Notes under the pieces: model-generated | Databases searched by the model: none | Seen by the model: the letters and a program-made list of their open reading frames with translations, nothing else | Told to the model about the DNA's origin: nothing | Translations under genes and position numbers: made by a program | Shown here: piece by piece, positions 20,837 to 51,700 of the stretch | Layout of the letters: each line of letters begins with the position of its first letter | Position numbering within the stretch: the first letter of the stretch is position 1 | Origin: Dehalococcoidia bacterium | Lineage (GTDB): Bacteria > Chloroflexota > Dehalococcoidia > Lucifugimonadales > G958296245 | Length of the DNA stretch: 64,000 nt | Direction of reading: 5' to 3' | NCBI GenBank assembly: GCA_963664035.2 | Contig: OY760867.2 | Location: 3,212,503-3,276,502 of the forward strand

Positions 20837-20856
20837 TGCATCCCTTACTTAGGATA

Positions 20857-21477: not shown

Positions 21478-21478
21478 T

Positions 21479-22537: not shown

Positions 22538-22574
22538 CGCCCCACTCCTTCCGGCACAACAAATTATACTTGAT

Positions 22575-26047: not shown

Positions 26048-26049
26048 GG

Positions 26050-30748: not shown

Positions 30749-33700
30749 CTACTGGTCCTGGTCTTCGCCGCGCCTTCGGCGTCTGGCCGCAAGGAAGAGG
30801 ACCGCGGATGCCAATACGCCTATGGCGACGGCCACGGCTAGGAGCGCCGGCCACGCCAGCGGCGCCGGGGCGTCCCGGTCCACCGGCGCTCCCGGTGCGG
30901 CGGTCGGCTCCACGGCCGGCCCGGCGGTGGGAGTCGGCTCGGGCGTAGGCGTAGGCGTGACCGCAAGCGCCAACTCCGGCTCCGGCGTGGCCGTAGCTGT
31001 CGGCTCGGGCATGGGCGTGGGAGTAGGCTCCGGCGTGGCCGTAGCTGTCGGCTCAGGTGTGGGCGTGGGAGTAGGCTCCGGCGTGGGCGTAGCTGTCGGC
31101 TCAGGTGTGGGCGTGGGAGTAGGCTCCGGCGTGGGCACGGCTGTCGGCTCAGGTGTGGGCGTGGGAGTAGGCTCCGGCGTGGGCGCGGGTGTCGGCGCGG
31201 GAGTAGGCTCAGGCGTGGGCGCGGGTGTCGGCTCAGGCGTAGGCTCGGGCGTCGGCGCGGGTGTCGGCTCAGGCGTGGGCTCAGGCGTAGGCCCAGGCGT
31301 GGGCGCGGGCGTCGGCTCAGGCGTCGGCTCGGGTGTGGGCGCGGGCGTCGGCTCAGGCGTGGGTTCCGGTGTGGGCGCGGGCGTCGGCTCCGGCGTGGGC
31401 TCGGGCGTGGGCTCAGGCGTGGGCTCGGGCGTCGGCTCAGGCGTGGGCTCGGGCGTCGGCTCAGGCGTCGGCTCAGGCGTCGGCTCGGGCGTCGGTGTTG
31501 GTGTCGGCGTTGGCGTCGGCGTTGGCGTTGGCGTCGGCTCAGGCGTGGGTATGCGACCAAGCCCAGGCCTTGGTCTGGGATCGGGCTCTTCTATCACAGG
31601 AGGAGGCGCGGCGATGACCTCGCCCACCGTGACCGTCCCGATGGATATGCCGTGGTAGCCGGGGTCATGGCTGTGGGCGGTGTGCTCGACGGTGACCCCA
31701 TTGCGCGAGCCGATGTGTTCGCTGCCTGCGGTGATTCTGACGGTCTTCGCCTCGTTCCAGTCGTCGGGGGTGAAGAAGACGAGCGAGGGACTCGCCGTCA
31801 CGTCGCGGTCGCCGGTGACGTCTACCTTCACCACCACGTCGCTGGTGGGCCGCTCGTTGACGAGGACGATGGTGTAGGTGACGAACCTGCCTCCCTGCAC
31901 CTCGTCTATCTGCTCGGTGGATAGCTCCACGCCCCGGGTATTGACCACGGCGAACCCGGAAGGGTTGCCGTCGGCGGGGGACTTCACCACTGAGTTGACG
32001 GCCCGGACCTGGAACCCGTAGGAGTTCAGCGTGTCCAGGCCGTTGACGACGGCCTCGCGGGCATCGGCCCCGCCGGACACCGTCTTCCACGACGTGGGGG
32101 CTGTGCCGGCGCCATAGGATCGCTGCCGGTATTCCCATCCGGTGATGGTGGAGTCAGCGGGGCTGGGGTCGTCCCACGTGAGCCTGGAGGTCCCCAGATC
32201 CGTTCCGTTGCCGGCGGCAAAGTTTCGCGGTGGGGCCGGAGGCGTGACGGCGATGTTTTCGGTGGTCAGCTGGTTGATGGTGGCCGGGCCCGCTCCCGCC
32301 GTGTTCACCGCCCGAAGCTGGAAGCTGTAGGTCTGGCCTCGGTCCAGGTTGGTCACGGTGTATTCGGTCCTGGGCACGAGGGTGACGTTGGCCGGGGCCG
32401 CGCCGTCCGCGCCCGCCGCCGCCGAGGTGGTCTGCTCCACCATTGCGGAGATGTCCTTCCACCCCGTGTTGGTGGGCGGCGTCACCGTCGCCTCGTCCGT
32501 CGGCGGGTACGTCACGGTCTGCACAATGGGCCGCACTTCCACGGTGCAGACCTGGCTGGCTGGCGGCTGCCCGACGGGCGCGCACGTCGCGGTGTAGGAC
32601 GTGGTGGTTGCGCTGCTGCCCTGTATGTCCGCCCATCTGCCGAAGCTGCCCGTTCCCGTCTTCTGGCGGTACTGGTACTTCCGGATGGTGGCGTCCTGCG
32701 GGTCGTCCCAGGTGAGCGTCGTCCGATTATTGCCGGCGTTGAAAGCCGTGAACGTCCACGATGCATGGGCTTCCAGCGGGAACTCGACGTTCTTGATCCG
32801 CTTCACGGGGGCGACCTGGAAGAGGTACTCCTTGTCCGCGGCCAGTCCGCTGACCTTGTAGGACCTGATGGCGCCGTCGATATAGCCGCAGCAGCCGCCC
32901 AGGTACACCGTCGTGTCGGCTTGAGGCTGGGCGGAGAGCCTCACACTCACGTTCTGCGCCGTGTTCCAGTTGCCGGCGGTGAAGGTGAGCGTGGAGCGGC
33001 TGAAGACCACGCCGTCCATCGATAGCCTGACTCTTACGGTGGCGGCGGGCCTGGAGGCCAGCTTGACGCCGACGGTCTGGTTCGTGTTCCAGTTGCCGGT
33101 GGTGAAGGTGAGCGTGGACGAGCTGAAGTCCGGGCTGGTCGCGATGTCCGTCCATCCGCCCTCGACGGTCCCCGCTACGAAGTTCGACGTCGTGCCGCTG
33201 GGGGGCGTTGCCGTGGCCACGTCCGAGGCCGGGTGTACCACCGGGCGCACCTCCACCAGGCAGACCCGCCCGGTGGAGCATGAAACGTCCCAGGACGTGG
33301 TCGCTTCGTCGCTGGAGGGTATGTTCGTCCAGCTGTTGAAGCTGCCCGTTCCCGTCTTCTTCCGGTACTGGTACTTCACGACGTGGTTGTTGTTGGGATT
33401 GGCCCAGGTGAGCGTCGTCTTGTTGTTGCTGGCTGTGTAGGCGGTGAAGCTCCACGGCCCCACGGTCGTCACGATCATGCCGCTCTGCGACACGCCGCGT
33501 ATCTCGAAGGCGTACTCCGTGCCGTCGGCCAGGCCCGTCGCCCCGTAGGAGGTGGTGGACGACCCGCTGTTGGTTATATCCGTCCAGGCGCCGAAGCTGC
33601 CCGCTCCCGTCTTCTGGCGGTACTGGTACTTGTCGATAAAGCTGTTGTTCGGGTTGGCCCAGTACAGGGTGACCCGCCCGTTGGAGCCGATGTTGCCGAT

Positions 33701-36700
33701 GCTCCAGCTGTCCACCGCCGCAAGCGGCTTCTCCACGTTCGGCTTCACCGCCCGCACCTGGAAGGCGTAGGCCGTGCCGTCGGTGAGGCCGGTGACGGTG
33801 TAGGACCTCTGGGTCTTGGCCGCGCACGGCGAGGAGCAGGGTATGTTCGTCCAGGCGCCGAAGTCGCCCGTTCCCGCCTTCTGCCGGTACTGCCACCTGG
33901 TGACGGCCGGGTCGTTGGGGTTCACCCAGTACAGGGTCGCCTGGCCGCTGGCGGTGACGACGGCAAGGTCGTCCGGCTCGCCGGTGTCGGGGAGAACCCT
34001 GACCCGGTACCGCCACTTGACGATGTCGCTGTCGCTTGGGTTGGGCCACGACAGGGTGGTCTCCCCCGCGCCGCCCACGTTGGCGATGCTCTCGCTGAGC
34101 ACTGCCGGGCGCTCCTTCGAGGTGTTTTGCCGGGTCACGGCGCGTACCTGGAAGGTGTAGGTCGTGCCGTTAGTGAGGTCGGAGACCTCGTAGGAGGCGA
34201 GGGTGCGCACCGAGCACGGCGAGGAGCAGGGTATGTCCGTCCAGTCGCCGTAGTTGCCGAACTGCCCGCCGGAGGGCTTGGCCTTGGACCGGTACTGCCA
34301 CTTGGTGATGGCAGGGTCGTTGGGGTTCACCCAGTACAGGGTCGCCTGCCCGTCGGCGGCCACCGCCGCGAGGCTGCCCTCCATGATGCGGTACTGGTAA
34401 TTCCGGATGGAGTTGTCCTGGGGGTCGGTCCAGGTCAGGGTGGCCTGGCTGGCCCCCGTCTGCGTGACATTGCCAACGAAGTTCACCGGCTTGTCCGGCA
34501 GCAGCGTCACATCCTCCGCGTTGGACGCCGGGCCGTCGCCCGCCCGGTTGACGGCGCGCACCTGGAAGCGCATCACCTCGCCGTACACGCTCTCCACGAC
34601 GTGGAACGTGGACGAGTGGGTGCTGGTCGCCGTCTTCCAGAACGCCGCGCCCAGCAGCGTCGTCCATTCCCCTTCGTCGGTATCCGCGTCGCCGGTGGCG
34701 GCGCGGTACTCCCATCTGCTTACGGACGGGTCGGCCGGGTCGAGGGCGGCCCAGCTCAGCGTTACGTCGAAGCCCTGGTCCGACGCGTCGTAGGATACGG
34801 TCGTTATCCTGGAGAGGGTGGTCGCCGCCGGAGTCAGCGTTACGCTGGCGACGCTGGAGGCCACGCCGCCGCCGCCGAGGTTGACCGCCCGCACCTGGAA
34901 CCGGTATCCGGCCCCGGTGGCGCTGAAGGGCAGATCGTAGCTTCTCGTGTCCTTGTCGCTTCCTGGGATGTCCGTCCAGGCAGCGGCGTTCAGGTCAACG
35001 CCTGCCAGGGCGACCCGGTACTGCCACCTGACGATGGTGGGGTCCGACGGCAGCGTCCAGCTCAGCGTTATCCGGAAGTCGTTGGTGGCCTGCCTGTACG
35101 ACTTGGCGGCGGCGAGGCTCTGGGGCTCTCCGGGCTTGGCCGGGAGCTTGACCTGGTTGGAATCGTCCGACGCGGGGCTGTCGCCCGCGGGGTTTTTGGC
35201 GCGAACCTGGAAGGCGTAGGTCGTCGCGCTGGTCAGGCCGGTCACGGTGAACGTCCTGGTGCTCGCGTCGCTGGGGGACATGTCCGTCCACGGGCCGTAG
35301 CCGCCGAACTGCCCGCCCTTGGGCTTGGACTTGTAGCGGTACTGCCAGGCGGTTATGGACGGGTATCCGGGGTCGTTCCAGGACAGGGCGGCCTGCCGGA
35401 AGCCCTTTACCGCCGCCAGGCCCGTGGGCTTGAGGGGCTTCGTCGCGGCGGAGGCCACCGCCGAGCCGGGCCCGGCCACGTCGTTGGTGTTCACGGTGCG
35501 GACGCGGAAGTAGTAGACCGTGCCCGCGTCGAGGCCGGGGATGGTCAGCCTGTTGGTCGCCGAATTGCTCCCCGGGACATTGGCCCAGGCGCCCCAGGCG
35601 GCGGCGCCTTCCTTCTGGCGGTACTGCCACTTCCGGATGGCGGTGTCGGTGGTCGTAGCCCAAGAGAGGGAGACCGTCGTGCCCGCGGCGCTGGCCGACA
35701 GGTCCGTGGGCTGGGACGGCGCCGGCTGCGGCGTGGCGGACGCCTCGCCCGACGCGGCGCCCGTGCCGATGGAGTTGACCGCGCGTACCTTGAACGAGTA
35801 CTGCGTGGCGTTGGTCAAGCCGGCCACGGTGTAGGACATGGTGTCCGCGCCGGAATCGGTCACGCCGGTCCAGGAGCCGTAGTTGCCGCTCACCCCCTCC
35901 TTCTGCTGGTACTCGTACTCGGTGATGGAGGAGTCGTTGGGGTCGTCCCAGACCAGCACCACCTGCGCGTTGCCCGGCTCCGCCGCCAGGTTGGCGGGGG
36001 GCGCCGGGTACATGGTGGAGGCCTTCTCGTCCGACGGCGCGCCGATGCCGACGGCGTTCACCGCGCGAAGCTGGAACTTGTACGTGATGCCGTTCACGAG
36101 GTTTGTGACGGTGTGCGAAGTGGAGGTCGCGCTGGTGCTAACCGTCGTCCACGCCTCGAGGCCCGTGGCCGCCGCGGTGTTGTTCGACGAGACGTAGCCC
36201 CGCACCCGGTAGGTGTAGCGCGTCCCGCTGGTCAAATTCGCCGTTACGATGTGCGTCCTGGTGGCCGCGTTGCTGGACGAGATGTCCGTCCACGTGCTGC
36301 CGTCGGTGCTGTACTGCCACTTGGCGACGCTGCCGTTCTCGGGCCCCGTCCACTCCAGCGCGACCTCGGTGCTTGCGCCCCGGCCCACGACGAAGTCCGG
36401 GAAGTTCCCGGTGCGCATCCTGGCCTGCCACTTGGTGATGGTGGAGTTGTCCGCGCCGGCCCACGACAAGACCGTCTGCCGGTTTCCACCCGCCACGGTG
36501 AAGCCTACGGGCTTGGCCGGGAATAGAGCGAAGCTCACGGCGTCGGAGGCGGGGCTGATGCCGTTGGGCTTGGCGTTGTTGATGGCGCGTATCCGGGCCT
36601 TGTAGCTCGCGCCGTTGGAGAGGTCCAGCGTCACCTCGGTGGTGGCGTGGTCGCTGCCGGAGACGTGCCGCCAGCCGCCGGCCGCGGTGGGCGTTGCGCT

Positions 36701-39700
36701 CACCGGGCCCCTGGCGGTCCCGGCGACGAGATTGCCGCCGGAGTCCACGGCGCGCACCCGGTAGGCGTAGGCCGTGCCGTTGGTGAGGCTGCTCACGGTG
36801 GCCTGGCGGGCCGACGCGCCACCGGAGACGTCCGTCCAGCTCGCGCTCGTGGACGTGCTGTACTGCCACTTGGAGATGCCGGCGTTGCCCGCGTGCGTCC
36901 ACTTCAACGTCGCCTGGGCGTTGCCCGGTATGGCCTCCGTGCCGTCGTTGGCCACGCGCCACACCAGGTACTGGTAGCCCCAGCCGGTCGTACTGACGTC
37001 GGTGGTGGCCGTCCAAGAGAGGGTCGCCTGGCCGTCGCCGCCCGTCCCGCCCAGGCCCGCGGGCTTGGTCGGGCGGGCCAGCGGTATGACCGAGACCTCG
37101 GCGGAGACGGGGCTGTGGCCCAGCCCGTTGGCGGAGCGCACCTGGTAGGTGTACGTCTTGTTGTTGTCCAGGCCCGTGAGGGTCCTGGTGTGCCAGCGGT
37201 CGCTGCTGGACGTGCTCTCCTCGTTCACCGTTACCCAGTCGCCGTAGCCGCTCTCGGTGTCGCTCTTGGGCTTCACCCGGTACTGCCAGGAGTGGAAGTA
37301 GGGGCTCGAGTACGAGTTCATGGTGTTGTACCAGCGCAGCACGGCCTGGCCGTCGCCGCTGGTGACGGTGAAGCCGCTGGGCTTGAGAGGCTTGGTGGCG
37401 ACGGGGAAGGCCCAGTCCGTGTCGGAGGCCGCGCCCGGGCCGCTGCCATTCACCGCCCGCACCTGGAAGTGGTACTTCGTGTTCCACGTCAGCGGCGGCG
37501 TGTCGAAGCTCGTGGTGTTGCCGGCGCTGCCGGGCACGTCGGCCCACGCCGCCGACGTGATGGCGCTTGCGCCGCCGCTCGTGTAGCGGTACTGCCAGTG
37601 GGTGATAGTGGAGCCGCTGGGCGCGGTCCAGCTCAACGCGGCGAACCCAAGCCTGCCGCTCGCGGCGAATCCCGTCGGCTTGCCGGGCAGGGCGCGGGGG
37701 ATGGCCGCCGCCTCGTCCGACTCGTCGCCGTCGCCGGAGGCGTTCACGGCGCGGACCTTGAACCTGTAGGTCGTGTCGTTCGTCAGCCCGATCAACTCGA
37801 CGGACGTGGTGGCCGCGCCGCTGTTGGATATGGCCGTCCAGTTGCCCCAGGTGTTGGCGCCCTCCTTCTGCCGGTACTTCCAGCCGGTGATCGTGGAGTT
37901 GTTCGGGTCCGTCCAGCTCAGCGTCACCTTCGAGACCTTGGGCGTCGCCGTCAGGCCCGCGGGCTTGGCCGGCGTGGGCAGCGCGGGCTTGGCCTCGGCG
38001 GACTCGTTGGAGGCCGGGCCGGCGCCGGCGGCGTTGACGGCGCGCACCTTGAACCTGTACGTCGTGCCGTGGGTCAGGCCGGTCACGGTGTATGCCAGGT
38101 TGTTGCCGGACGCAGTGGGCGTCATGTCCGTCCATGCGCCGTAGCTGCCGTAGCTGCCGCCGTCGGGCTTGGACTTGTACTGGTACTGCCACGCGGTGAT
38201 GCTGTCGTTATCGGGGTCAGTCCAGGACAGGTCGACCTGGCCCTCGGTGTACAGGATGGACGTCTTGTCGGTCTTGGCGGCGGCGGTCGGGCGCGACGGC
38301 TTCGCCGGCAGCGTGGGAGCCGACACCTCGTCGGACACCGAGCCGTTGCCGGAGGTGTTCACGCCCCGCACCTGGAAGGTGTACGTAGCGCCGTTGTCCA
38401 GGCCCGTAACCGCGTAGGTCGTCGTGGAGTTGCCGGGGCTTGGCCCGGACGTCCAACTGCCGTAGTTGCCCGTTCCCTTCTTCCGCCGGTACTGCCAGCT
38501 ATCGACGTGGGTGGAGCCGCCCTTGGTCCAGACCAGCGTGACCTGGGCGTCGCCGCCGGTGGCGCTGAGCGAGGGGGCTTCCGGAGCGCCGGCCACGGGC
38601 CGGGCCGAGGCCTCGTCGGACGCCGGGCCTGGGCCGTTGATGTTGACGGCGCGAATCTTGAAGGTGTGGGTGACGTTGTTGCTCAGGTTGCTCACGGCGT
38701 AGGACGCGGTGGACGCGCCGCTGTTAGGCACGTCGGTCCACTTGCCGTACCCGCCGGTCGTCTTGTACTGGTACTGCCACTTCTCGATGCTGGCGTTGTT
38801 GGGGTTGGTCCAGGACAGGGCGACCTGGCGGTTGTTGGGCAACGCCGAAAGGCCCGTGGGCTTGGAGGGAACGGGGATGGGAGTGGCCGACGCCTCGGCA
38901 GAGGCCGCGCCGTCGCCGGCGGAGTTCACCGCGCGAATCCTGAATGTGTGGGACGTGTTGTTGGTCAGCCCCGTTACGGTGTAGGACTTGGTGGACGCCG
39001 TGCCGTTGGGCACCGCCGTCCACGAACCGTAGCCGCCGCCGGTCTTGTACTGGTACTCCCAGCCTGTGATGGTGGAGTTGCCGGGGGCGTGCCACGTGAG
39101 ATCGACCGACTGGTGCTTGCCCGCGGCGGTGAGGCCCGTGGGCTGGGCGGGCACAGGCACGGGCGTGGCCGTCCGCTCGTCGGACGGCGCGCCGATGCCG
39201 TAGGAGTTCGATGCCCGGATTCGGAAGGTGTACTCCGTGTTGTTGGTCAAGCTGCCGACTGTGTGAACGGTGGCGGCGGCCGAGGTGGACATCTGCGTCC
39301 ACGAGCCGTAGCTGCCCGCGCCGGACTTCTGCTGGTACTCCCACTTGTCGATGGTGGAATCGCCGGGGTCGGTCCACTTCAGCTCGACCGACTGGTGCTT
39401 GGCCACGGCGGTAAAGCCGGCGGGCTTGGCCGGCGCGCTCTTCGGCGTCGCCGTCGCCTCGTCCGACGCCGCCCCCTCGCCCGACGCGTTCACCGCCCGC
39501 ACCTTGAACTTGTACTCCGTGTCGTTCGCCAGTCCGGTTACGGTGACGGACGTCGCGTGAGACCCTATGGCGGAGCTGAGGTCGACGGTCTTGGAGCCGC
39601 CTGGAGGCGCTGCCGCCAGCTTGACGGACACCCCCTGCGCCGTGTTCCAATTCTGCGTCGTGAAGGTGAGCGTGGAGGGCGCGAAACGAACGTTGACGCC

Positions 39701-42700
39701 CCTGTCGAAGGTTATCGTCACGTCGGAAGATGGGGCGGCGGGCAGCTTGACTACAACAATCTGCACAGTGGGGTAGTTCTGGGTGGTGAAGGTAACCGCG
39801 GACGGGTTGGAAACCAGGGGGACCTCCACGTCGGTCCAGGTGTACGGCGGTGGGCTCAAGTCGAAGGGCGAGGTCGTTGCCGTGTACTGCCACTTGGTTA
39901 TGGACGAGTCGCCCGGATCGTTCCACGCCAGGTCGACCGACTGGTGCTTCGGCGTCGCCGCCAACCCCGACGGCTTCGACGGCTTGGCGATGGGCGTGGC
40001 TTTCACGCCTACGGACTCCGCCCCGTTCCCGTAGCTGTTCACGCCGCGTACCTTGAAGGTGTACTCCGTGTCATTGGTCAAGCCGGTCACGGTATAGGTG
40101 ATAGCGCCCACCGTCCCGGTAACGGTGGCCGACGCCCAGGTGGACCCGCCGTCCTTGCTGTACTGGTATGAGGTGGCCGCGATGCTGCCGCCGTAGGTCC
40201 ACCTGAGGGTGACCTGGGCGTCGCCAGGCGCGGCGGACTTCAGGTCCGGGGCGGTGGGCACGGGCCGCGGGGTGGCCTTCTTTTCGTCGGACGGCGCGCC
40301 GTCGCCGGTGGAGCTCACGGCGCGAACCTGGAAGGTGTGCTCCGTGTCGTTCGTCAGCCCGGTCTTGGTGTAGGCCGTGGTCGCCGCGCCGCTGCTAGGA
40401 ATGCTGAACCAACCGGTGTAGCCGAAGACGGTCTTGTAGCGGTACTCCCAGCGGATGATCGTGCTGTCGCCGGGGTCGTCCCACGCCAGTATGACGCTGG
40501 CGTTCTTGGGCGTAGCCGTGAACCCCGCCGGCTTCGCCGGCTTCACTACTGTCGGCGTCGCCGTCGCCTCGTCCGACTCGGCGCTCGCCCCATACGCGTT
40601 CGACGCCCGTATCTGGAAGGTGTACGCCGTATCGTTCGTCAGCCCCGTCACCGTGTAAGACGTGGCCGTATCCGACATGGACATCTGCGTCCAGGAGCCG
40701 TAGCCCGCCGTGCTCTTCTTCCGGTACTCCCACTTATTGATGGTGGCGTCATTCGGATTCGTCCAGGCCAGGTCGACGGATGCGGCCTTCGCCGTCGCCG
40801 TCAAACCCGTCGGCTTCGCCGGCGAGCTCTTCGGCGTCGCCGACTTTTCATCGGACTCCGCGCCGTCCCCGGAGGCGTTCACCGCCCGGATCTTGAAGGT
40901 GTGGGACGTGTCGTTCGTCAGCCCCGTCACCGTGTGGGACGTGGTGGACGCCGTGCTGTTGGGCACGTCCGTCCACGAGCCGTAAGCGCCGTCGGTCTTG
41001 TACTGGTACTCCCAGCCGGTGATGGTGGAGTTGTTGGAATCCGTCCACGCCAGGTCGACCGACCGGTGCTTCGGCGTCGCCGTAAACCCCGCCGGCTTCG
41101 ACGGCCTGGCGAGGGGCGTGGCTTTCACGCCTGCGGACTCCGCCCCGTTCCCGTAGCTGTTCACGCCGCGGATCCTGAAGGTGTACTCCGTGCCATTGGT
41201 CAGGCCGGTCACGGTAAAAGTGATAGCGCCCACCGTCCCGGAAACGGTGGCCGTCGTCCAGGTGGACCCGCCGTCCTTGCTGTACTGGTATGAGGTGGCC
41301 GCGATGCTGCTGCTGTAGAGCCACCTGAGGGTGACCTGGGCGTGGCCCGGCGTGGCGGACTTCAGGTCCGGGGCCGTGGGCGTGGGGCGCGGCGTGGCCG
41401 AAGCCTCGGAGGACGACGCGCCGTCGCCGGACGGGTTGACGGCGCGCACCTGGAAGGTGTACTCCGTGCCGTTGGTCAGCCCGGTCTTGGTGTAGGAGAT
41501 GGTGTTGGCGCCGCTGCCGGCAATGTCGTACCACGTGGTGTAGCCGCCCGTGGTCTTGTACCTGAACTGCCACTTGGTGATGGTGCCGTCGTTGGCGTTG
41601 TCCCAGTCCAGGAGCGCGCCGGCGCTCTGCGCCGTCGCGGTGAGGCCGGTGGGCGCGGCCGGCGGGGGCACGGGCGTGGCCGACACCTCCGCCGACGCCG
41701 TTCCGTTGCCATAGGAGTTCACGGCGCGAATCCTGAGCTGGTGCGCCGTGTTGTTGGTCAGCCCCATCACCCTGTGGGACACGGTGTCCTTGTCGCTGTC
41801 CGTGATGGCCGTCCACGCCGCGCCCCAGGCGCCGCCCGTCTTCCATTGGTACTCGTAGCCGGTGACCGTCGTGTCCGTCGTCTTCGTCCAGGTCAGGTCC
41901 ACCGCCTTGTCCCTCGCCGTCGCCGCGAGGCCCGTGGGCGCCGCCGGGACCGGCTTGGGCGTCGCCGACGCCTCGTCCGACGCCACGCCGTCGCCGGAGG
42001 CGTTGACGGCGCGCACCTGGAAGGTGTAGGCCGTGTTGTTGGTCAGCCCGGTCCTGGTGAACGTGGTGGTAGCCGCGCCGCTGCTTGGAATGGCAGTCCA
42101 TGAGCCGTAGCTGCCCGTGTCCTTTTGCCGGTACTCCCAGCGGGTTATCGTGCCGTTCCCCGGGTCCGTCCACGCCAATACCGCGCCCTGGTGCTTGGGC
42201 GTGGCGGTGAACCCCGCCGGCTTGGCCGGCTTGGTCGATGCGGCGGCGGCGTCCGACGCCAGGCTGTTGCCGACGGAGTAAGCAGCCCGCACCTTGAATC
42301 GATACGTCTTGCCGTAGGACAGCCCCGTAGCCGTGTACGACGACGTGCTGGCGTTGCTGCTTGGCACGTCGCTCCAAGTCGCGCCGTCGTCCTTGCTGTA
42401 CTGCCACCCCGTTATCGTCGAGTCGCTGGCGGCGGTCCAGGACAGGTCGACGGAGGTGTCGGTGGACGTGTTTATGGCCGCCGTCAGGCCGAGGGGCTTG
42501 TACATGGGCGTCGCCGTCACCGACGCGGCATCGCCGTAGCCCGTGGAGTTCGCCGCCCGCAGGCCGAAGGTGTAGGCCGTGCGGTCGGTCAGCCCGGTAA
42601 CGGTGTGGGACGTGTAGGTCGCGCTCGTGCTGATCCGCGCCCACGCCTTCAGGCCCGCCACCGCCACGGTGTTGTTCGCCGCGATGAAGCCCCGCACCCG

Positions 42701-45700
42701 GTAGGTCACGCGCGCGCCGTTGGTCAGCGTCGCCGTCACCGTGTAAGAGGTCTGCGTCCCCACCGCGCAGGGCGACGCGCAGGGGATGTCCGTCCAGTTG
42801 GAGCCGTCGGCGCTGTACTGGTACTTGGTGATGCTGCCGTTGTTGGGGTTGGTCCACTCCAGCCTGGTCTGCTGGCTCGCGCCCGTCCCCACCACGAAGT
42901 CCGCGCCGGTCCCCGCGCGGCTCCGCAGCTCGTAGGAGCTGATGGTGGAGTTGGACGGGTCGTCCCACGCCAGGGCCGCCTGCCCGTTCACCGCCGCCGC
43001 GGCCAGGCCCGTGGGCGCGGCCGGCACGCCGGCCGTGGCCCTCAGCGCGTTGGACTCGGCCCCGTCGCCGAGGCTGTTCACCCCGCGCACCCGGAAGGTG
43101 TACGTCGTGCCGCTGGCCAGGCTCGTCACGGTGTATGAGCGGGTGGTCGAGGCGCTGCCGGGTATGCTCTGCCAGCCCGCGCTCGTGGACGTGCTGTAAT
43201 CCCAGCTTGTGGCCGCGGCGCTGCCGGAGTAGGTCCACGTGAGGACGACCGAGGCGCTGCCGGACGGCGTGGCCGACGCCAGCGTGGGCGCGGTCGGCAC
43301 GGCCAGCGGCGTGGCCGACACCCCCGCCGACGCCGTCCCGTCCCCCGAGGCGTTCACCGCCCGCACCTGGAAGGTGTAGGCCGTGTTGTTGGTCAGCCCG
43401 GTCCTGGTGAAGGACGTGGTGGACGCTACGCTCCCCGGGATGTTCGTCCAGGCCCCGTAGCCGCCCGCGCTCTTGTACCGGTACTGCCACCTGGTGATGG
43501 CGGCGGTGGTGGAGGCGTTGCTCGTGTCCGTCCACGCCAGTATGACGCTGCCGTTCTTGGGCGTAGCCGTCACCGTGGGCGCGGACGGCCTGGCCAGTGG
43601 CGTAGCCTGGACCGCGCCCGGGGCGCCGTTGCCCGCAGGACTCACCGCCCGCACCTGGAAATCGTAGGCGGAGCCGTTCGTCAAGCTCCCCACCGTGTGC
43701 GTCCTCGTATCCTTCGTCGTCGCCCGCACCTCGACGTCGTTGTTCACGTTGGGGATCACGCCGCTGTTGACGTAGAGGCTGGTCGTGCTGGGGCAGCCGC
43801 TGTTGGAAGCGGTATTGCAGATCTCCGTCCAGGCGCCCCACGTCTGGGTCCCGGCGCGCCGGCTCCGCCACTCGTACCTGGTGATGAGGGAGTCGTTGAG
43901 GTTGGTCCAGGTGAGCAGCAGATAGGGGGCGCCGGTGCCCGCCCGGTAGCTGCCCTTCAGCGCCAGCTTCGTCCCGGTCACTTCCGTCCAGCCCAGCGTT
44001 CCGGTGGTCGGCCAGCCGGCGGTGGTCAGCTTGTGCCGCGTTTCCCACGAAGTGATCGACGAGTCCGCCGGCGACAGCGTCCACGAAAGCGTCGCCGTTC
44101 CATGCCCCACCGTCGCGGTAACCGCCGGCGCAGCCGGCCCCGGCGGCGGCGGGTTCGGCGTCGCTTTCGCCTCGTCCGACCCCGCCCCGTTCCCCGCCGC
44201 GTTGACCGCCCGCACCTGGAACGTGTACTCCGTACCGTTCGTCAGCCCCGTCGCCGTGTGCGAAGTGGCGGACGCGCTCGTGCTTACAGTCTCCCACGCC
44301 TGCAGGTTCGTCACCGTCGGCGCAGTGCCGGAGGACACCGCCGCCCGCACCTGGATCGTATGCGTTCCGCTCGGCAGCGCCGACAAACCGCCGGTGGAGA
44401 AGGTATGCGAAGTAACCGACGGACAGCCCGGATTCGCCGCGGTCCAGCAGATGCCCGTCCACGTGATCCCGTCCGCGCTGTACTCCCACTTGGTGACGTT
44501 GGACGTGCCGGACGCGGTCCACGACAGGGTAAACGTCTGTCCTCCGCCGTCGCTGACCACGAAGTCCGCGTTGCTCCCGGTCCACTGCCGGAGCTGCCAC
44601 CCGGAGACGTAGTCGTCATCCGGATTCGAATAGGTCCACGCCAGGTCTACGGACCCGTCCTTCGCCGTCGCCGTGAGTCCCGCAGGCTTCGATGGGACCG
44701 CCAGCGCCGTCGGCGTCACCGTCGCGTCGAGGCCATTCCCGGTCGAGTTAACCGCCCTCAGGCTGAACTTGTACGTCGTCCCGCTCGCCAGCCCCGCAGC
44801 CGTGTGCGAAGTGGCCGCCGCGCTCGTGCTGATCTCCTCCCACACCTTCAGCCCCGTCACCGCCACCGTGTTGTTGTTCGAGATGTATCCCCTCACCTGG
44901 TAGGTGTACTGCTGCCCGAAGGTCAGGGACTGGTTGATGGTGTGGGACATCGGGGTCCCCTGCGGGCAGGTCGACCCGCCGCCGCACGAGATGTCATACC
45001 ACCACCAACCATTCAGGCTGTACTGGTACTTGGCGATGCTGGAGTCGTTGAGGGCGGTCCACTCCAGCGTCAGCTTCTTGCTCGCGTACGCGCCCATCAC
45101 GATGTCCGCCGCGCTCCCCGACCGCGTCCGCATCTGGTACGACGTAATCGTCGAGTCGGCCGGGTCGGTCCACGATAGGAACGCCTGGGTCCCGGCGGAC
45201 TTGGCCGCCAGCCCGGCGGGCTTGGACGGGACCGCCACCGGCGTCCCCTTGATCGACGACGACGCCCCCTTCCCGTCCGAATTCACGGCCCGCACCTGCA
45301 CCTCGTGCTCCTGCGCGTTGATCAACCCCCCCACGTCCACGCTCGTCGCCGACGCGCTTATCGCCACCCAGGGCTGCCATTGAGTCGTCCCTCCCAGCGC
45401 CCTGTAGCGGTACTCGTAGCCCGTGATCGCGTTCACGTGCCCCGTCGGGGCCGTCCAGCTCACCCGCAGCGTCGCGTTGCCCGCCGCCGCGGACAGGTCC
45501 GCCGGCGCGTCCGGGACTCCCGTCGGCGTGACCGTAACCTCGTCCGAGACCGGACCGGGCTCGTCGTAGGTGTTCACGGCGCGCAGGCGGAAGGTGTGCG
45601 GCGTGTTCCCGGCAAGGCCCGTGACCGTGTACGCGGAGGAGTCGCCGCCCAGGCGCGTGGACGTCCACGCGCCCCAGCCGCCGTCGGTCTTGTACTGGTA

Positions 45701-48700
45701 CTCGTACGCCTTCCGGCCGCCGTGGGCCTTGTCGGACGGCCCGGAAGGGGGAGTCCAGCGCAGCCTTGCCGTGTTGGTCCCGGCGGAGGCCGCCAGGCCC
45801 GTGGGCTTGCCGGGCCGCCACGAGGTGTTGCTGCGGGCGGAGTCCGAAGGCGCGCTCTTGCCCGCGCTGTTCACGGCGCGGACGTGGAAGGTGTAGAAGG
45901 CGTTGCGAGTCAGGTGATGCACGTCGTGCTCGACGGTGCTCGTGCCGCTGTTGGGGATGGCGATCCAGGGCGTGGGAACGGTCATGTCGGCCTGGGGCTG
46001 GGCGTTCAGCCGGACGCTGACCGTCTGCGCCGTCCGCCAGTTCGCCGTGGTGAAGAACACCGCGTGCGGGCTGAAGGTCACGCCATACTGGGCAAAGGAT
46101 ATCTGCGTGGGGACCAGGGGCTTGGTGGCTGGCCGGACGCTGATCGTCTGCGCCGTGCTCCAGTTGGCGGTGGTGAAGGTCAGGCTGGACGCGCTGACGT
46201 TCACGTCCGGGCGGAGGTCGAGTGTCTTGGGCACGTTGTACTTGCCGTTGGTCTTCGGCGGCTCGGCGGTCAGCTTGACGTTGACCGTCTGCGCCGTGTT
46301 CCAGTTGCCGGTGGTGAAGGTGAGGCTGGACGGGGAGAACGTCATACCGCTCCGGGAGAGGGACACCGTCACCGTGGCCGTGGGGCGTTGGGTCAGCTTG
46401 ACCTGGACCTGCTGGGCCACGTTCCAGGGCTTGGGGTTGGCGTAGTTGTGGAATCTCACCTCGCCCGGGGTCGCCACCGGGCCGCTCACGGAGGCGATGC
46501 CGGACCACGCGCCGACGGAGGCATGACGGTACTCCCAGCCGGTGATGGAGGAGTCGTTGGGGTTGTCCCAGGTCAGCCTGATGCGGCCCTTCTGGTGACA
46601 TTCGCCCAGGACCAGGTTGCATGACGGCGGCTCGACGAAGCCGCTCCCCAGGCCCGCGGCCTGGAGGCCCGTGGGCTTGGCGGGAATGCCGACGGGGGTG
46701 GCCGTCGCGCTATCGGAGGCGGCTGAGTTCCCCTTGTAGTTCACCGCCCGCACCTGGAACGTGTAGGCCGTGCCGTTGGTCAGCCCCGTCGCCGTGTAGC
46801 GCCTGGTGGAGGCGCCGCTGCTCGGCACGTCCGTCCAGGTCGTACCGTTGTCCTTGCTGTACTGCCACTTGTAGATGGACGCGTCGCTCGGGTTGTCCCA
46901 CAACAGGTAGGCCGACCGGTTCCGGGCCGCGGCCGTCAGGCCCGTGGGCTTGGACGGGGCCGCGCTGGGCAGCGTGACGCTCGCGCCGGAGGACGGCTTG
47001 CCGTTCAGGATATCGGCGCCCGTACCCTTCCGGGCGCGGATGCGGAACTCGTTGGCGGCGCCCTCGGCGAGGCCGGCGGTCACGTCGTGGGTGATGGTGG
47101 TCGAAGCGCTGTTCGGCATGGCCGTCCAGGCCAGGGGCCATCTCATCCCGGTGGAGCCCTTGGGCCCGGAGGTGTCCGTCAGCACGTCGGCCAGCAGGTA
47201 CTCCTCGTTGGCCTTCAGCGCCCGCACCTGCACCTGGTAGTCGGTGCTGGTGGCCAGGCCCGTGATGATCTTGCTGGCGCCCGTCCCCGCGTCGGCCCAG
47301 TCGCTGAACTCTCCCGCGCCGGTCTGGGTGCGGTAGCGGTAGCCCGTCGCCCCGCTGACGGCCACCCAGTTGACGGTGACGCTGCCGCTGGCGTTGGTGG
47401 TCACGTAGGCCGTGCCGTCCAGGATCTTGGTCGTCGTGGCCGTTGGCGCAAGGTACTGCACCTGGACGTAGTAGGTCGTGCCGCTGACCAGGGTGGAGTC
47501 CTGGATGCGATAACTCGTCCTGTCCTTGCAGGCGGTGTCCGTACTCTGCCGGCAGACGTTGGCCCAGCTTCCCCAGGCGCCGCCGTCGCTCTTGATGCGG
47601 TACTGCCAGGCGGTTATGTTCGAGGTGCTGGCGGGAGCCTGCCAGCGCACTTCCTCAAGCTCCTGGGTGTTGGGCGTCCGCACCTGGTACTGGTAGCTCG
47701 TGATGTTACTGTTGCCCGGGTCCGTCCAGCCTAGGACTACCTTGCCGGTTTCAGGGGAGGCGGCGAAGTCCGTTGGCGCGGCCAGGGCGGGCCCGCCGGC
47801 GTCTTCGACGCCGGCGGCGCGGCTCTCCCCGGCGTTGTTCACCGCCCGGACACTGAATGTGTGCCCGCCGTAGTTTGTCAGGCCCGTGAAGGTGTGGCTG
47901 TAATCCGCCTGATTCTGAACGATCGCCACGTCCGTCCAGGGGCCGGCCCGGGAGCGGTTTTTGGTCACCCAGCGCACCTGGTGCTTGGTCACCGGGTCGC
48001 CCGGCGGGTCGGCCGGCTTGGTCCACGACAGCGTCGCTTGCCCGTCGTCGGTGGTCACTCGGAAGTTGGTGGGCTTGCCGGGGACGCCTACCTTATCCAG
48101 GGCCACGGTGTAGGTGGTGGACTCTGAGTTGGTGCTGTCCTTGACCTTGAAATTGAAGCTGGTCTCGTTGGAGAAGCTGCTCCCGGGCCGGTATTGCAGA
48201 CGCTTCAGCTTCCAGTTGCCCGTGGTGGCCGTGGTCACTTCCATCCCCGCGGTGACGAGCGTTGTCCTGTTGCAGGTACTCCTGGTGGGCCTAGTCTTGC
48301 AGAATGAAGTTACGGTATTTCGCTCATGGACGTACAGCGCCCCGGTGGCGGGCAGCGACTCGATGATGATCGACTGGTACGTGTTGCCGTCGGCGTCGAC
48401 GTACGTGAAGTCCTTGAAGGGGATGTAAACGTAGGTCGGCGCGGAAACGTCGTAGGACACGTCCACGCTGGTGGGCGGCGTATTGCCGTCCACGGCCCGC
48501 GCCACCACCTCCGGCGCGGCGATGCCGCTGTAGTTGGCGTCCGTGCTGGTCGCCGTGTGAACCAGCGTGGTGGACTCCGTGTCGACGTCGTTCAGGTCCG
48601 GCGTTACGGAGAGCGTGACCGTCTGCGCCGTGGTCCCGTTGCTGGACGTGAAGGTCAGCGTGGCCTGGTCCCCGGTCGTGTTGGGGTCGGTATCGAAGGT

Positions 48701-51700
48701 GGGGCGGCCCTGGTGGGTACCGGCCTTGCGGGTGATGGTCACGGTGACGTCGTTCGTGGGATTCGTGCCCAGCCGGACGGTGTAGGCCCCCGTCGTGGTC
48801 CCGGTGAGCGGCTCGTTCACGTCCACCGCCGTACTGCTCACCACCACCCAGCCCTTGAAGCCGGCGGTGGCGTCGGCCGAGGGCTGGCTGTAGTCCGCGC
48901 CCGACTTGGTGGCCTGCACCATCAGCGTGTAGGTGGTGCCTGGGACGAAGCGGTTGCCGCTCTCCGGTACCAGGTGCGTCGCCACGTCCCCCGCCGTTAC
49001 GTGGCGGGCGTCGTCATAAACCTCTGAGCCGGACTTCCAGTAGAGCCGGTAGCCCGTGGCGTCGGTCACCTTGGTCCAGTTGACGCGGATGCCGCCGCCC
49101 TCCTGGGAGGCGGTGACGCCGGTGACCTGCGCCAGCTCGTCGTCGTCCACGATGTTCAGGACGGGGGCGGTAGCAGTGGTGTTGCTGACCCACGTGGACG
49201 TCGCCGTCGTGCCGCCCGTCTTCGCCGGGTGGGTGGCCAGGGTCATCGCCTTGCTGTAGTTCGAGGCGTCGGTGTAGTTGTTCACCGCCGCCAGCGTCTG
49301 CGTCCCGCTCGTGCTTCCCGCCGCGATGGTGACGTCGCCGACGGTGTACGCGCTGGCGTCTTGCGGCACGGCGACCACCAGGTCCCGGTTCCACTCGGTG
49401 GTGGCGGTGACGGTGACGGTGGTCTGGGTCGCGCCGCCCACGCGCTCGTAGATGGTGGTCGGACTCAGCGTCAGCGATACGACGGGCCGCTGGTCGGCCG
49501 CGGTCAGCGCGCCGTACTTCAGCGCCGGGTACTGGTTCGCCGTGCCGAAGTCCCACGGGTCGTCCTGGCCGGTGGCGTGGTTGTTGTCGTTGTCCGCGTT
49601 GTCCAGGTCCAGGTTCCAGTCCTTGTAGATGTCGGTGCTCTGGGTCCCGTACGCCGTGGGCGCCTGGAGCTGGCTCGTCGTCTTGGCCGTGCCCTCGCCC
49701 CTGTCCGACCGCCCGTCGGTCTCGGAGTCGTAGTAGGACGCGGTGGTGGAGCCCGTTTGCTTGTAGCCCACCAGCCCGCCGGTCTCGTAGTTAGAGTTGG
49801 TGGAGTGGGTGACCGCCCCGGTGGCGAAGCTGTACTCGATGTTCCCGCGCTGGAATCCCACCAGGCCGCCCTCGTAGGCTTTGGCGCCGCCGGGAGCGGT
49901 GGCCGAGACGGAGCCACGGGCGTAGCTGACGCGGATGGTGGCATTCGGGCTTAGCTGGCCCGCCAGCCCGCCGGCCTGGGCATGCTTTCCGCTGCCGCCG
50001 GGAGCGGTGGCCGAGACGGAGCCGGCGGCGTAGCTGGCGTCCACGCGGGTTGCGGCGGCGTTAAGCACGTGCTCGCCCACGGCCCCGAAGAGCCCTCCGG
50101 CGAAGGTGTTGGTGCCGCTTTGCGTCCCCTGCGCAACGGCCGTGACGTCCGCCCACGAGTAGCTGGAGATCGTCACGCCGTCTTCGAGCGTCCCCGCCAG
50201 CCCGCCCACGAAGAGGTGCTTGTCGGCGGCGGTCATGGTGGACGTGGCGGAGACCGAGCCCGTCGTGTAGGAGTCCTCGACGGTGACGCTGCTGCCGAAA
50301 ATCCTGCCGGAAATCCTGCCCGCCAGCCCGCCCGCGTAGACGTGCCCGCCGCTGGACGTGGTGAGCTTGACGTCCACGTTCGTGACGCCCACGTTCGTGA
50401 TAGGCCCATCCTGGATGTGGCCGAAGAGGCCGGCGTAGCTGCCCGACGTGCTGTTGATGAACAGGTTTTCGATTTCGTAGCCGTTGCCGTCGAACCGGGC
50501 GGCGTAGAAGACCGTGCTAGTCCCGCCGATGGGGACCCAGCCCACCCCGCCGTTCCAGTAGGTGTCGCCCAAGTCCGCGCCGCCGCTGCCGTTGGTGTCG
50601 AAGTCGAGGTTGTTGGAGAGCTCGTAGCCCTCGCAGACCTGGTTGGCGGGCAGCGTCTCGTCCTCGTTGCAGCCCATGCCGGCCTCGGCGGTGGGGAAAG
50701 CGGACTCGTAGTTGGCCCCGTCGCCGGAAGCCACCGAGCCGTCGCCGTCCAGGTCCCAGCGGATGGCGTTGAGCTGCGCCAGCGTGGTTATCTCTATCAG
50801 CCCGTCGTCGTCCGCGTCGTAGTCCTTGCCCGGGCTGGCGGTCGCCGACGCCCACGGCCCGTCGTCGTAGCCCGTCTTGGTGGCCGCGAGGCGGAAGGTG
50901 TAGACGCCGTTGGAGGTGAGGGGGCTGATGGTGTGCGGCGAAGTGACGCTGGCGACCTCCGTCCACGTCGTATCCGCCGACTCCTTGTACTCCAGCTTGT
51001 TGCCCGTGGCCCCGGGCTGCCGCGTCCACGTGAGGGTGACCGAGGTGTAGTTGGCCCCTCCCGTAAGGGTGAACGCCGGCGCGATCAGCCCGAAGTCGTC
51101 GTCCTCGATGGTCAGCGACGCGCCGGAGGGCATGGCGACCCAGTTCTGGTCCGTCGTCGGCGTCAGCGTGACCGAGGCGTCCGTTGCGCCGGTCGTGTTG
51201 TTTACCGCCTCGACGATCAGCGTTCCCGTCGTCGCCCCCGCCGCGATGACCAGGTCCGTCGTGTACGTGTTGCCGGACTTCAGCCTGTATGTGGCGGCGG
51301 TCTCGTTGACTTCCAGCGTCACCGGCACCTCCTGGGCGGGGCTGATGGTGGCCGTCAGCGTCGACGTGGCAACCGGACTCGCGCCGCAGGCGTTCGTGTC
51401 CGTCCCCTTGGTCGTCTCGCAGATGCTGGCCGGCGACACCGCCACCGTCACCGACGCCCGCTGGTCCGCCGCCGTCAGCCCGTAGTCGAGAACGGGGTAC
51501 TGGCTGGACGTGCCGAAGTCCCACGGGTCGTCGGCTGCTGCCGTCCCGCCCACGTCGATGTTCCAGGCGGCGTAGATGCCTGTGCCGTAGGCCGTGGGCG
51601 TCTGAAGTTGGGTGGTGGTCGTGCCGGCGCCCGCCCCGGTGGCCGTGATGCCCGACGTCGTCGTGTCCCAGTACGAGTTGGCGACCGTCGCCCCGGCGTG

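Follow-up and report, generated by a model that had tools for sequence, protein, structure and literature searches.

The window, that is the whole stretch of DNA analysed here, comprises 64,000 nucleotides from a Dehalococcoidia bacterium (assembly GCA_963664035.2, contig OY760867.2, positions 3,212,503 to 3,276,502, forward strand). It carries a giant open reading frame (ORF) on the minus strand that runs unbroken over 33 kb and reaches the window edge still open, giving a surface protein of at least 10,995 amino acids (summarised as more than 11,000 residues). The N-terminal part of approximately 5,000 amino acids consists of GLUG-repeat modules, and from residue 5200 or so on the protein is an array of FN3 domains. 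This array is followed by a domain of approximately 110 amino acids, a Pro/Thr/Glu linker of 240 amino acids, a transmembrane helix and RRRRR, and the nested FN3 region described below lies close to this membrane anchor. Pfam matches in the segments scanned were confined to families of the fn3 type and to the GLUG motif, with no RTX repeats among them. Searches of Pfam, NCBIfam and PDB sequences gave nothing significant for the 110-residue domain or for the C-terminal anchor. Inspection of the C-terminal sequence by eye revealed no LPXTG motif, and NCBIfam matched no sorting signal in the last 133 amino acids. The window and its relatives come from uncultured Dehalococcoidia.

An FN3 profile HMM of 95 positions, built on 26 intact repeats taken from the giant protein itself, was used for assigning domains and parts of domains. 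The domain string past residue 5200 reads FNFFCFNCFFNFCNFCNFCFFNFCFFFFFFFFFNCFFFFFFFFNFCNFCFFFFFNFNFFFCFCF and holds 11 N-halves and 11 C-halves in perfect bracketing. Along the profile, the N-halves stop at positions 35-51 and the C-halves begin at 38-56, with the break always at about 36-56, so that the breakpoints are complementary in all 11 split hosts; by HMM coordinates the segments of each host are singly incomplete and jointly complete. Nine of the hosts are single-level, and six of these enclose a single guest (N-F-C), including the module used as one-level reference in Table 1. When the domain string was shuffled 200,000 times, 8.4% of the shuffles were balanced and none was balanced with spans as tight as those observed, and the bracketing therefore exceeds chance. 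Furthermore, each multi-guest loop ends in a Pro/Thr linker of 20-26 amino acids just ahead of the tryptophan of the host strand C', which is what loop closure would require.

Table 1. Features of the giant ORF and of its nested FN3 region, with nucleotide positions in the window.
Feature	Residues (aa)	Nucleotides	Strand	Description
Giant ORF		30749..63736	-	10,995 aa; no upstream stop up to nt 64000
One-level reference module	9073-9245	36002..36520	-	FN3 in C-C' loop of FN3
N1	9745-9788	34373..34504	-	host 1 strands A-B-C; HMM 10-38
Fa	9789-9870	34127..34372	-	complete guest FN3; HMM 6-85, 69 bits
N2	9871-9921	33974..34126	-	linker and host 2 strands A-B-C; HMM 10-36
Fa', Fb', Fc'	9922-10167	33236..33973	-	three complete guest FN3; HMM 72-77 bits each
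Fa'	9922-10000
Fb'	10001-10084
Fc'	10085-10167
C2a	10168-10206	33119..33235	-	26-aa Pro/Thr-rich return linker and host 2 strand C' (GGWTDIA)
LTFT x2	10207-10289	32870..33118	-	two units of ~40 aa, 'LTFTxGNWNTxQ', ending CCGYIDGA
C2b	10290-10312	32801..32869	-	host 2 strands E-F (IRSYKVSGL...YLFQVAPVK); HMM 55-77
Fc	10313-10405	32522..32800	-	complete guest FN3 of host 1; Fc' paralog
C1	10406-10501	32234..32521	-	host 1 C-terminal piece; HMM 56-86

A sequence-only reading had parsed positions 32230-34510 as a three-level FN3 nest, and all peptides quoted there lie in frame in the giant ORF. The region itself (32234-34504, minus strand, residues 9745-10501) has the order N1, Fa, N2, Fa' Fb' Fc', C2a-LTFTx2-C2b, Fc, C1. 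N1 and N2 match the N-terminal part of the FN3 profile only, and C2b and C1 the C-terminal part only; the five intervening domains (Fa, Fa', Fb', Fc' and Fc) match it essentially over the full length. Fa, with its CSSPC cysteine pair, directly follows N1 without a spacer, and Fa', Fb' and Fc' sit in the C-C' loop of host 2. C1 is made up of a Pro/Thr return linker of 20 amino acids, strand C' (GWKDIS), a 25-residue Ala/Gly-rich remnant of the C'-E loop and strands E-F-G. C2a is a paralog of the corresponding segment of C1; host 2 is a recombination chimera, its C' strand being derived from C1. The loop out of host 1 between C and C' covers residues 9789-10424, approximately 636 residues, and the figure of about 760 given earlier for this loop measures the entire span. 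The two LTFT units, placed inside host 2 in the sequence-only reading, stand between C' (GGWTDIA) and E (IRSYKVSGL) and therefore in the C'-E loop, unlike the three guests in the C-C' loop. Pfam, NCBIfam and PDB-sequence searches gave no significant match for these units.

We then spliced the host pieces together and compared them with the Pfam fn3 family (PF00041, 84 positions, gathering score 25 bits). Spliced host 1 scored 41.2 bits in one stretch over profile positions 8-77, and spliced host 2 scored 28.2 bits in one stretch over positions 15-70, both above the gathering score. Neither N1 nor N2 alone gave a match; the lone C-pieces scored 28.7 bits (C1, positions 47-77) and 13.5 bits (C2).

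An intact counterpart of host 2 is found in P0007, a distant ortholog. Spliced host 2 aligns with its uninterrupted FN3 domain 'Fb' in a single HSP across both splice points (40% identity, E 5e-21). Sequence alone does not fix which N-half belongs to which C-half, and in the best Pfam alignment N1 is continued by the C-terminal part of Fa, as might be expected if N1 paired with C2 and N2 with C1, or if host halves were swapped with halves of neighbouring guests. Such crossed pairing is very improbable, as N2 finds its best match in the N part of the same Fb that also carries the FQVAPV motif of C2b, and N1 and C1 are both present in P0007, where the N2/C2 counterpart is unsplit. Additionally, the guests have C-C' loops of normal length and are confidently folded alone.

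Comparison with other genomes, which had been suggested along with the parse, bore it out. Four independent assemblies (L001, L003, L004 and L005) share architecture and junctions with the window protein, and N1, C1a and C1b are kept in all eight related genomes compared. Across these eight, N1 and C1 are conserved as well as or better than intact domains, C1b being almost invariant even where the overall identity is about 40%. L007 (41% identity) carries both hosts and a third one inside, one level deeper. The extreme repetitiveness of the gene and the frameshifts in related contigs would fit repeats mis-joined in metagenome assembly; we consider such an artefact hardly credible, given that the same junctions recur, at 74-82% identity, in four or more other assemblies and that the ORF in the window is uninterrupted. 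With complementary halves, spliced hosts recognised by Pfam, an intact ortholog domain and a conserved arrangement, FN3-in-FN3 nesting two hosts deep is solid and conserved at the level of sequence. Prevalence can be given only roughly, since the profile search (1.84 billion representatives) orders its matches by how much FN3 they contain in total.

A different question is whether the halves pair. It is possible, though rather doubtful, that they are scars of recombination, half-domains left behind by unequal crossing-over that stay unpaired and connect ordinary FN3 beads as linkers, either flexible or donating a strand. The chimeric origin of host 2 would agree with this, as would L006, where recombination between Fc' and Fc has removed C2a, the LTFT units and C2b and has orphaned N2, so that an orphan half can evidently persist. 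Taken alone, N1 and C2b have a high dN/dS (0.89 and 1.20), values that come from just 44 and 23 codons. Scars would, however, hardly be expected to break always at the same site of the fold (after strand C), with halves always complementary and bracketed, or to be conserved like N1 and C1. Nor is the pooled dN/dS of the split pieces above that of intact FN3 domains (0.36 versus 0.43), with 0.20 for C1. Strict selection for balanced halves was also considered and was rejected, because L006 breaks the balance; L002 has several unmatched C-halves, at least partly through weak detection of N-halves.

Structure prediction was carried out with AlphaFold2. The one-level reference module reached a pLDDT of 92.5 and a pTM of 0.88, with the host halves at 79-95, and DSSP assigned seven host strands in the model, the strand number of an FN3 beta-sandwich with its sheets A-B-E and C-C'-F-G. 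PDB chains of single FN3 domains align over all 173-174 columns of this model with a target-normalised TM of 0.61-0.66. The model thereby gives a highly confident prediction that one-level FN3-in-FN3 folds with host and guest nested together, which again speaks against scars.

For the 760-residue region the mean pLDDT was 60.7 and the pTM 0.33, from an alignment that was shallow and imperfect over the host pieces. The sequence-only reading had named prediction of the region as one chain as the test of pairing between the outermost segments. All guests came out confidently (Fa 73-91; Fa', Fb' and Fc' mostly 70-91), and the pLDDT was low for N1 (33-51), N2 (28-51), C2a/LTFT/C2b (26-49) and the start of C1 (31-48), strands E-G of C1 reaching 77-88. 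Low confidence in all four host pieces next to confident intact domains is also what scars would give. The weakness of the model is probably due in part to the alignment (A2, 30 rows), which covers N1, N2 and C1 thinly. Adding the two other LTFT-bearing hosts left C2 still uncovered, and when single FN3 fragments were added, MAFFT placed all of them on guest Fa. Foldseek with the 760-residue model returned matches to tandem FN3 domains only and was silent on the pairing of host halves.

Guests resolved with confidence and hosts not could also mean that host and guests are never all folded together and that the nest is a folding or mechanical switch. The termini of an FN3 domain lie at opposite poles, and placing an Ig-like guest whose ends are far apart into the loop of a host is the classic way to make the folding of the two mutually exclusive (PMC5133956). 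Engineered constructs of this kind (barnase-ubiquitin, GL5/I27) resemble the nest in having such a guest in a host loop, and a folding tug-of-war is seen in GL5/I27 (PMC5133956). They are artificial, however, and built to be incompatible, whereas in the natural one-level module both partners are predicted to be folded at once. With long Pro/Thr return linkers present in the multi-guest loops as well, we regard a switch as improbable.

The reading that we prefer is that FN3 domains are inserted recursively in this region and that the host halves re-associate, and this is probably correct. Physical pairing in the two outer hosts, 1 and 2, is likewise probable. The three-level nest as first read thus stands as a parse of sequence and homology, and its one-level version is predicted to fold; three physical levels are something we infer, because the prediction for the 760-residue region was neither positive nor negative and L006 keeps N2 without C2.

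In sequence, host 1 consists of N1 (strands A-C) and C1 (C'-G), with Fa, host 2, Fc and the return linker of 20 amino acids in its C-C' loop. Host 2 consists of N2, C2a (C') and C2b (E-F), with three guests and the 26-residue return linker in C-C' and the two LTFT units in C'-E. The arrangement may have arisen by in-frame, out-of-register recombination among FN3-coding repeats, duplicating Fa together with the N-half of Fb on the one hand, and strands E-G of Fb together with Fc and C' of C1 on the other, and the same route may have remodelled it again and again. On folding, the two halves of each host would rejoin as one beta-sandwich. The main chain would then run from the preceding FN3 domain through host 1 to the following FN3 domain, the linker and the membrane, and the eight enclosed modules would form a side branch near the membrane-proximal end. 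Such a branch would add domains without a longer stalk and would be sheltered from tension until the host unfolds. As a tentative extension, FN3-in-FN3 might be a heritable and amplifiable 'branching module', in which recursive insertion at one permissive loop, up to three hosts deep in relatives, makes giant surface proteins tree-like and not beads-on-a-string, with hosts acting as load-bearing clamps or mechanical fuses that free sub-trees on unfolding.

Nested domains as such are already known. RrgA, a pilus adhesin on the surface of Gram-positive bacteria, is nested to three levels, and its discontinuous Ig-like hosts are completed by sequence-distant N- and C-terminal segments. Hosts and guest have different folds in RrgA (a vWA-like D3 inside Ig-like hosts), and the protein is stabilised by isopeptide bonds and anchored through LPXTG; adhesins of its type have isopeptide-bonded CnaB/IgG-rev domains. 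In the giant protein hosts and guests are all FN3 and not CnaA/B, the insertion is always in the same loop, the unit has been amplified many times, and neither LPXTG (by eye) nor an NCBIfam sorting signal was seen. The insert domain of the insulin receptor is reportedly located in the C-C' loop of FnIII-2, as McKern et al. are said to have described in 2006. In this receptor family FnIII-2 accommodates an insert of more than 100 residues following strand C, its two parts nevertheless making up a single sandwich (PMC2577065). That insert differs from the guests here in being largely disordered and furin-cleaved (leaving the halves on separate chains), eukaryotic, single-level and not FN3 (PMC2577065). 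The split Ig-like domains of the RTX adhesins MpIBP and FrhA are also discontinuous beta-sandwiches in giant stalk-like adhesins; they project the inserted domain sideways from the axis, and they are missed by homology tools and recognised by AlphaFold2 (PMC10865825). In these adhesins a ligand-binding domain (PA14, or sugar- or peptide-binding) is the guest, the split comes after a single strand, and the proteins belong to Gram-negative T1SS/RTX systems (PMC10865825). Adhesins of the RTX type are marked by a nonapeptide beta-roll and a C-terminal T1SS signal. The giant protein has FN3 guests, splits after strand C, is recursive, lacks RTX repeats in the segments scanned with Pfam and ends in a Pro/Thr linker and a transmembrane helix. 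No description of FN3-in-FN3 turned up when we searched the literature for FN3 domains that are nested, discontinuous or inserted, and the homotypic recursive form was not found there either.

Arrays of FN3 and Ig-like domains are usually taken to be linear rods, and in the output of annotation pipelines split hosts such as these show up as incomplete domains or not at all. Should the nests fold in the way described here, counting domains would be a poor guide to the contour length, valency and mechanics of these proteins. The FN3 C-C' loop would then be a naturally validated site for hundreds of residues of folded cargo, which would be of interest for the engineering of monobodies and FN3 scaffolds. 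The family would also offer a natural series (intact; one, two and three hosts deep; one broken nest) on how repeat recombination creates topologies, and could reveal how host-guest strain, that is mutually exclusive folding, is avoided. If real, a branching module would be nature's equivalent of the domain-insertion elastomers made by engineering, and fibrillar adhesins would be seen to use a new architectural principle. The engineered insertion constructs (PMC5133956) provide a frame for mechanical hierarchy and host-guest strain in FN3 nests.

Matches of the relatives co-occur with proteins from metagenome-assembled genomes (MAGs) of sponge symbionts. FN3-rich 'eukaryote-like' surface proteins of sponge symbionts are thought to mediate interaction with the host.

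The region under study lies within one minus-strand open reading frame of 10,995 aa, in which all peptides quoted in the sequence-only reading were found in frame. No stop codon occurs between the 5' end of this frame and the window edge, and the protein is therefore longer than 10,995 aa. Residues 1 to about 5,000 (window about 48700-63736) form about seven modules of about 680 aa, each with one FN3, GLUG-motif repeats (AGGLVG..., Pfam PF07581) and a beta-rich segment without family assignment. Only PF07581 and fn3 were recognised in these modules, which also carry a ...WDLDGDG motif resembling a calcium site. From about residue 5200 onward the protein is an FN3 array, followed at the C-terminus by a domain of about 110 aa without family assignment, a 240-aa Pro/Thr/Glu-rich linker, a single hydrophobic helix and RRRRR. 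This suggests a surface protein with a C-terminal membrane anchor. By eye no LPXTG was seen in the C-terminal sequence and NCBIfam gave no sorting-signal match; the C-terminus may be a plain tail anchor fitting a wall-less or S-layer envelope.

Features of the giant protein and its neighbourhood (N1/N2 and C1/C2, N-terminal and closing halves of hosts 1/2; Fa, Fa', Fb', Fc', Fc, complete guest FN3; LTFT, units of about 40 aa).
Feature	Window (nt)	Residues (aa)	Strand
Giant ORF	30749..63736		-
N1		9745-9788	-
Fa		9789-9870	-
N2		9871-9921	-
Fa'		9922-10000	-
Fb'		10001-10084	-
Fc'		10085-10167	-
C2a		10168-10206	-
LTFT x2, C'-E loop of host 2	32870-33118	10207-10289	-
C2b		10290-10312	-
Fc		10313-10405	-
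C1		10406-10501	-
Ala/Gly-rich stretch, C'-E loop of host 1	32330-32450	~10430-10456	
LTFTxxNWxTxQxV units, C'-E loop of FN3 host	45974-46492	5749-5921	
LTFTxxNWxTxQxV units, C'-E loop of FN3 host	39569-39823	7972-8056	
One-level module (FN3 within C-C' loop of FN3)	36002-36520	9073-9245	-
Guest FN3s with cysteine pair after strand C'	34127-34372, 33737-33973	9789-9870, 9922-10000 (Fa, Fa'); other guests at 6219-6291, 6398-6476, 6606-6672, 6951-7027	
C-terminal domain (~110 aa)	31607-31951		
(P/T/E)n linker, hydrophobic helix, basic tail	30752-31606		
Defence-island-like cluster	17483-30554		-
SNF2/ResIII helicase with NOV_C domain	27177-30554		-
AAA_15/AAA_21 ATPases	26050-27378, 21479-22537		-
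DUF1156 protein	22575-25547		-
DUF499 + HEPN_Swt1 protein	17483-20836		-
Hybrid sensor (791 aa)	13980-16355		+

An FN3 HMM of 95 positions was made from 26 uninterrupted repeats of the same protein and then scanned against the protein. N1 and N2 cover only HMM positions 10-38 and 10-36 (strands A-C), and C2b and C1 only 55-77 and 56-86 (strands E-G), with the C' strands GGWTDIA (host 2) and GWKDIS (host 1) lying slightly upstream of the respective matches. The five domains enclosed between the host pieces match essentially over the full length. When spliced, host 1 gives a single continuous Pfam fn3 match of 41.2 bits (profile 8-77/84) and host 2 one of 28.2 bits (15-70/84), the gathering score being 25 bits; unspliced N1 and N2 have no Pfam fn3 match. 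The halves are complementary, bracketed and spliceable into one fn3 match, and the observation is therefore confirmed and not a matter of chance.

The interpretation proposed earlier is supported in part: the three-level parse is solid in sequence and evolution, and the three-dimensional nest is no more than probable. The loop of host 1 had been put at about 760 residues and is shorter, about 636 (aa 9789-10424, between strands C and C'). Host 2 does carry three guest FN3 in its C-C' loop, which with a 26-aa Pro/Thr linker comes to about 272 residues, and the LTFT units, also ascribed to host 2, lie in its C'-E loop instead.

Nine further split FN3s occur in the protein, all single-level: six hosts hold one FN3 guest, one holds two, and two hold LTFT units only. 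The N-half of a split FN3 always ends at profile positions 35-51, and the C-half starts at 38-56. The domain string past aa 5200, FNFFCFNCFFNFCNFCNFCFFNFCFFFFFFFFFNCFFFFFFFFNFCNFCFFFFFNFNFFFCFCF, has perfectly balanced brackets. Balance was seen in 8.4% of 200,000 shuffles of this string, and never with spans as short as those observed.

The LTFT units gave no match in Pfam, NCBIfam or PDB-sequence searches. Weak relatives were seen in Streptosporangium, Gammaproteobacteria and Planctomycetota loci (L008-L016), and a related motif occurs within the C-terminal domain of about 110 aa. A cysteine pair past strand C' is usual in guest FN3s, unlike the linear-array FN3s, and Fc and Fc' have a pair ahead of strand F; these pairs may be guest-specific disulfides.

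Protein searches returned fragments P0001, P0002, P0004 and P0020 at 58-78% identity and a distant C-terminal ortholog, P0007, with a best-segment identity of 35%. Weaker matches came from MAGs named Synechococcus SB0675, Ca. Poriferisocius, AqS3 and Tectomicrobia, which going by their names would be sponge symbionts. In a scan of species-representative genomes, five MAG chromosomes of Dehalococcoidia proved to carry the locus: L003 (OY761144, 82% identity), L004, L005, L006 (OY762444.1, 74%) and L007 (OY762063.1, 41%). The window architecture recurs with identical junctions in L003, L004, L005 and L001, the contig of P0001. An assembly artefact is therefore ruled out.

In P0007 the order is N1, Fa, Fb, Fc, C1a, an extra FN3, C1b, where C1a and C1b are the C' and E-G segments of C1. 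Host 1 is thus split there too, and the counterpart of host 2, Fb, is an intact FN3 ending ...YVFQVAPVIQ. A piece-by-piece score matrix gave Fb as the best match of both N2 and C2b, and the C1a segment as that of C2a. A single BLASTP HSP (40% identity, E 5e-21) matches spliced host 2 to Fb across both splice points and runs on into the downstream linker; this alignment is the best evidence that N2 and C2 are a single interrupted FN3. The additional FN3 of P0007 (aa 593-670, starting 'DGSATASSSVTLTW') is complete and stands where host 1 of the window has a 25-aa Ala/Gly-rich stretch, as if a whole domain had been lost or gained at a second permissive loop.

The window architecture could have arisen by two out-of-register, in-frame unequal crossovers in an ancestor resembling P0007 (N1 Fa Fb Fc C1). 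In the first, the C-C' loop of Fb would have been fused with the start of Fa, so that Fa and the N-half of Fb were duplicated; in the second, fusion of the C'-E loop of C1 with the E strand of Fb would have duplicated E-G of Fb, Fc and C' of C1. The LTFT units are positioned at this second proposed junction. As a result of the two crossovers host 2 would be a chimera, with strands A-C and E-G from Fb and C' from C1.

Two loci suggest that the gene is still recombining. L007 (3316-5184) has the order N1, Fa, N2, N3, F, a unit of C', LTFT x2 and E-G, C2 (QVAPV), Fc, C1; it nests hosts to a depth of three and, in the same loop of the same host, carries other cargo than the window does. L006 (about 4560-6120) has N1, Fa, N2, Fa', Fb', Fc, C1 without C2a, LTFT or C2b, and its single Fc is a mosaic that starts Fc'-like and ends Fc-like. 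The simplest reading is that homologous recombination between Fc' and Fc deleted C2 and left N2 an orphan. A 1-nt frameshift is found just past C1 in L006.

The split pieces are not decaying remnants. Pooled dN/dS against L001 was 0.36 for split pieces (252 codons) and 0.43 for intact FN3s (560 codons); C1 had the lowest value, 0.20, values for very short pieces being noisy. N1 and the C' and E-G segments of C1 are conserved in eight genomes, the E-G segment being almost invariant even in L007 and the related locus L002, which are only about 40% identical overall. N2, together with the VLPDTGEP junction, is conserved in the six close genomes. An NNFCC stretch was noted elsewhere in L002.

From the best 150 matches of a profile search against 1.84 billion sequences, 147 representative proteins were recovered. 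At least one FN3-in-FN3 module was present in 13 of these 147 (35 modules altogether), and hosts two or more deep in only 3.

The structure of the one-level module was predicted from an alignment of 19 natural modules, which came from this protein and from six others. AlphaFold2 gave a mean pLDDT of 92.5 and a pTM of 0.88, with host segments at 79-95, and DSSP assigned seven host strands in addition to the guest strands. In Foldseek against the PDB, tandem FN3 arrays fit poorly overall (TMq 0.22-0.32, rmsd 20-37 A), and two single-FN3 chains, 1x5z (115 aa) and 4n68 (99 aa), align over 173-174 columns, i.e. the whole model, with target-normalised TM of 0.66 and 0.61. These results give indirect support for a single FN3 formed by the two host segments. 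The whole 760-aa region, predicted from a 30-row alignment with only three recycles, gave a mean pLDDT of 60.7 and a pTM of 0.33. Guest cores reached 70-92 and C1 strands E-G 77-88; N1 (33-51), N2 (28-51), C2a/LTFT/C2b (26-49) and the first part of C1 (31-48) were low, the alignment being poor in depth and register across these host pieces. Foldseek with this model was uninformative. The whole-region prediction that the sequence-only reading had proposed as its check did not bear out pairing of the outermost segments, and neither does it refute the nest.

The main rival, which we regard as rather unlikely, takes the halves for scars of recombination that never re-associate. In its favour speak the weak AlphaFold2 result for the whole region, the unpaired N2 in L006 and the chimeric make-up of host 2. 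We lean instead towards hosts 1 and 2 each closing into an FN3 sandwich, with the axial chain running through host 1 only. A side branch near the membrane-proximal end would then consist of Fa, Fc and, between them, host 2 with its Fa', Fb', Fc' and LTFT units, adding displayed domains without added stalk length, and guests would stay mechanically shielded until the host unfolds. The shielding idea reportedly stems from the engineered domain-insertion elastomers of Peng and Li (2009).

Concerning geometry, proteins with mutually exclusive folding, e.g. GL5/I27 (PMC5133956), are designed by putting an Ig-like guest, whose termini lie at opposite poles, into a tight loop of the host. Guests of the short one-level modules span 78-88 residues between host strands, as against about 93-95 per linear-array unit. 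Each multi-guest loop has a Pro/Thr-rich linker of 20-26 residues right before the host C' tryptophan, presumably what a three-bead chain needs for return to its start point.

Nested domains are well established, and domain insertion per se is not new. The insert of insulin-receptor FnIII-2 is located in the C-C' loop. Known cases include RrgA, with D3 within D2 and D2/D3 within D1 (PMC5333627), RTX adhesins, whose ligand-binding domains are projected by split Ig-like domains (PMC10865825), and the insert domain of insulin-receptor FnIII-2 (PMC2577065). The giant protein belongs to neither the RrgA nor the RTX family, and in the scanned segments Pfam gave neither RTX repeats nor domains of the isopeptide type. 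It differs from all three systems in that host and guest are of the same fold, insertion always falls in the same loop and is recursive, and the unit is amplified as a module. Full-text literature searches, of incomplete coverage and weak as evidence, returned no description of FN3-in-FN3. Recursive homotypic nesting, with a natural series of 0-3-deep variants, would be surprising and testable for specialists in adhesins or FN3 engineering.

Directly downstream of the giant gene lies a defence-island-like cluster, and the equivalent position of contig L001 carries type I R-M and MmeI-like genes. Furthermore, a hybrid sensor in the window combines GAF, PAS, HisKA, HATPase, receiver and Trans_reg_C domains in one polypeptide.
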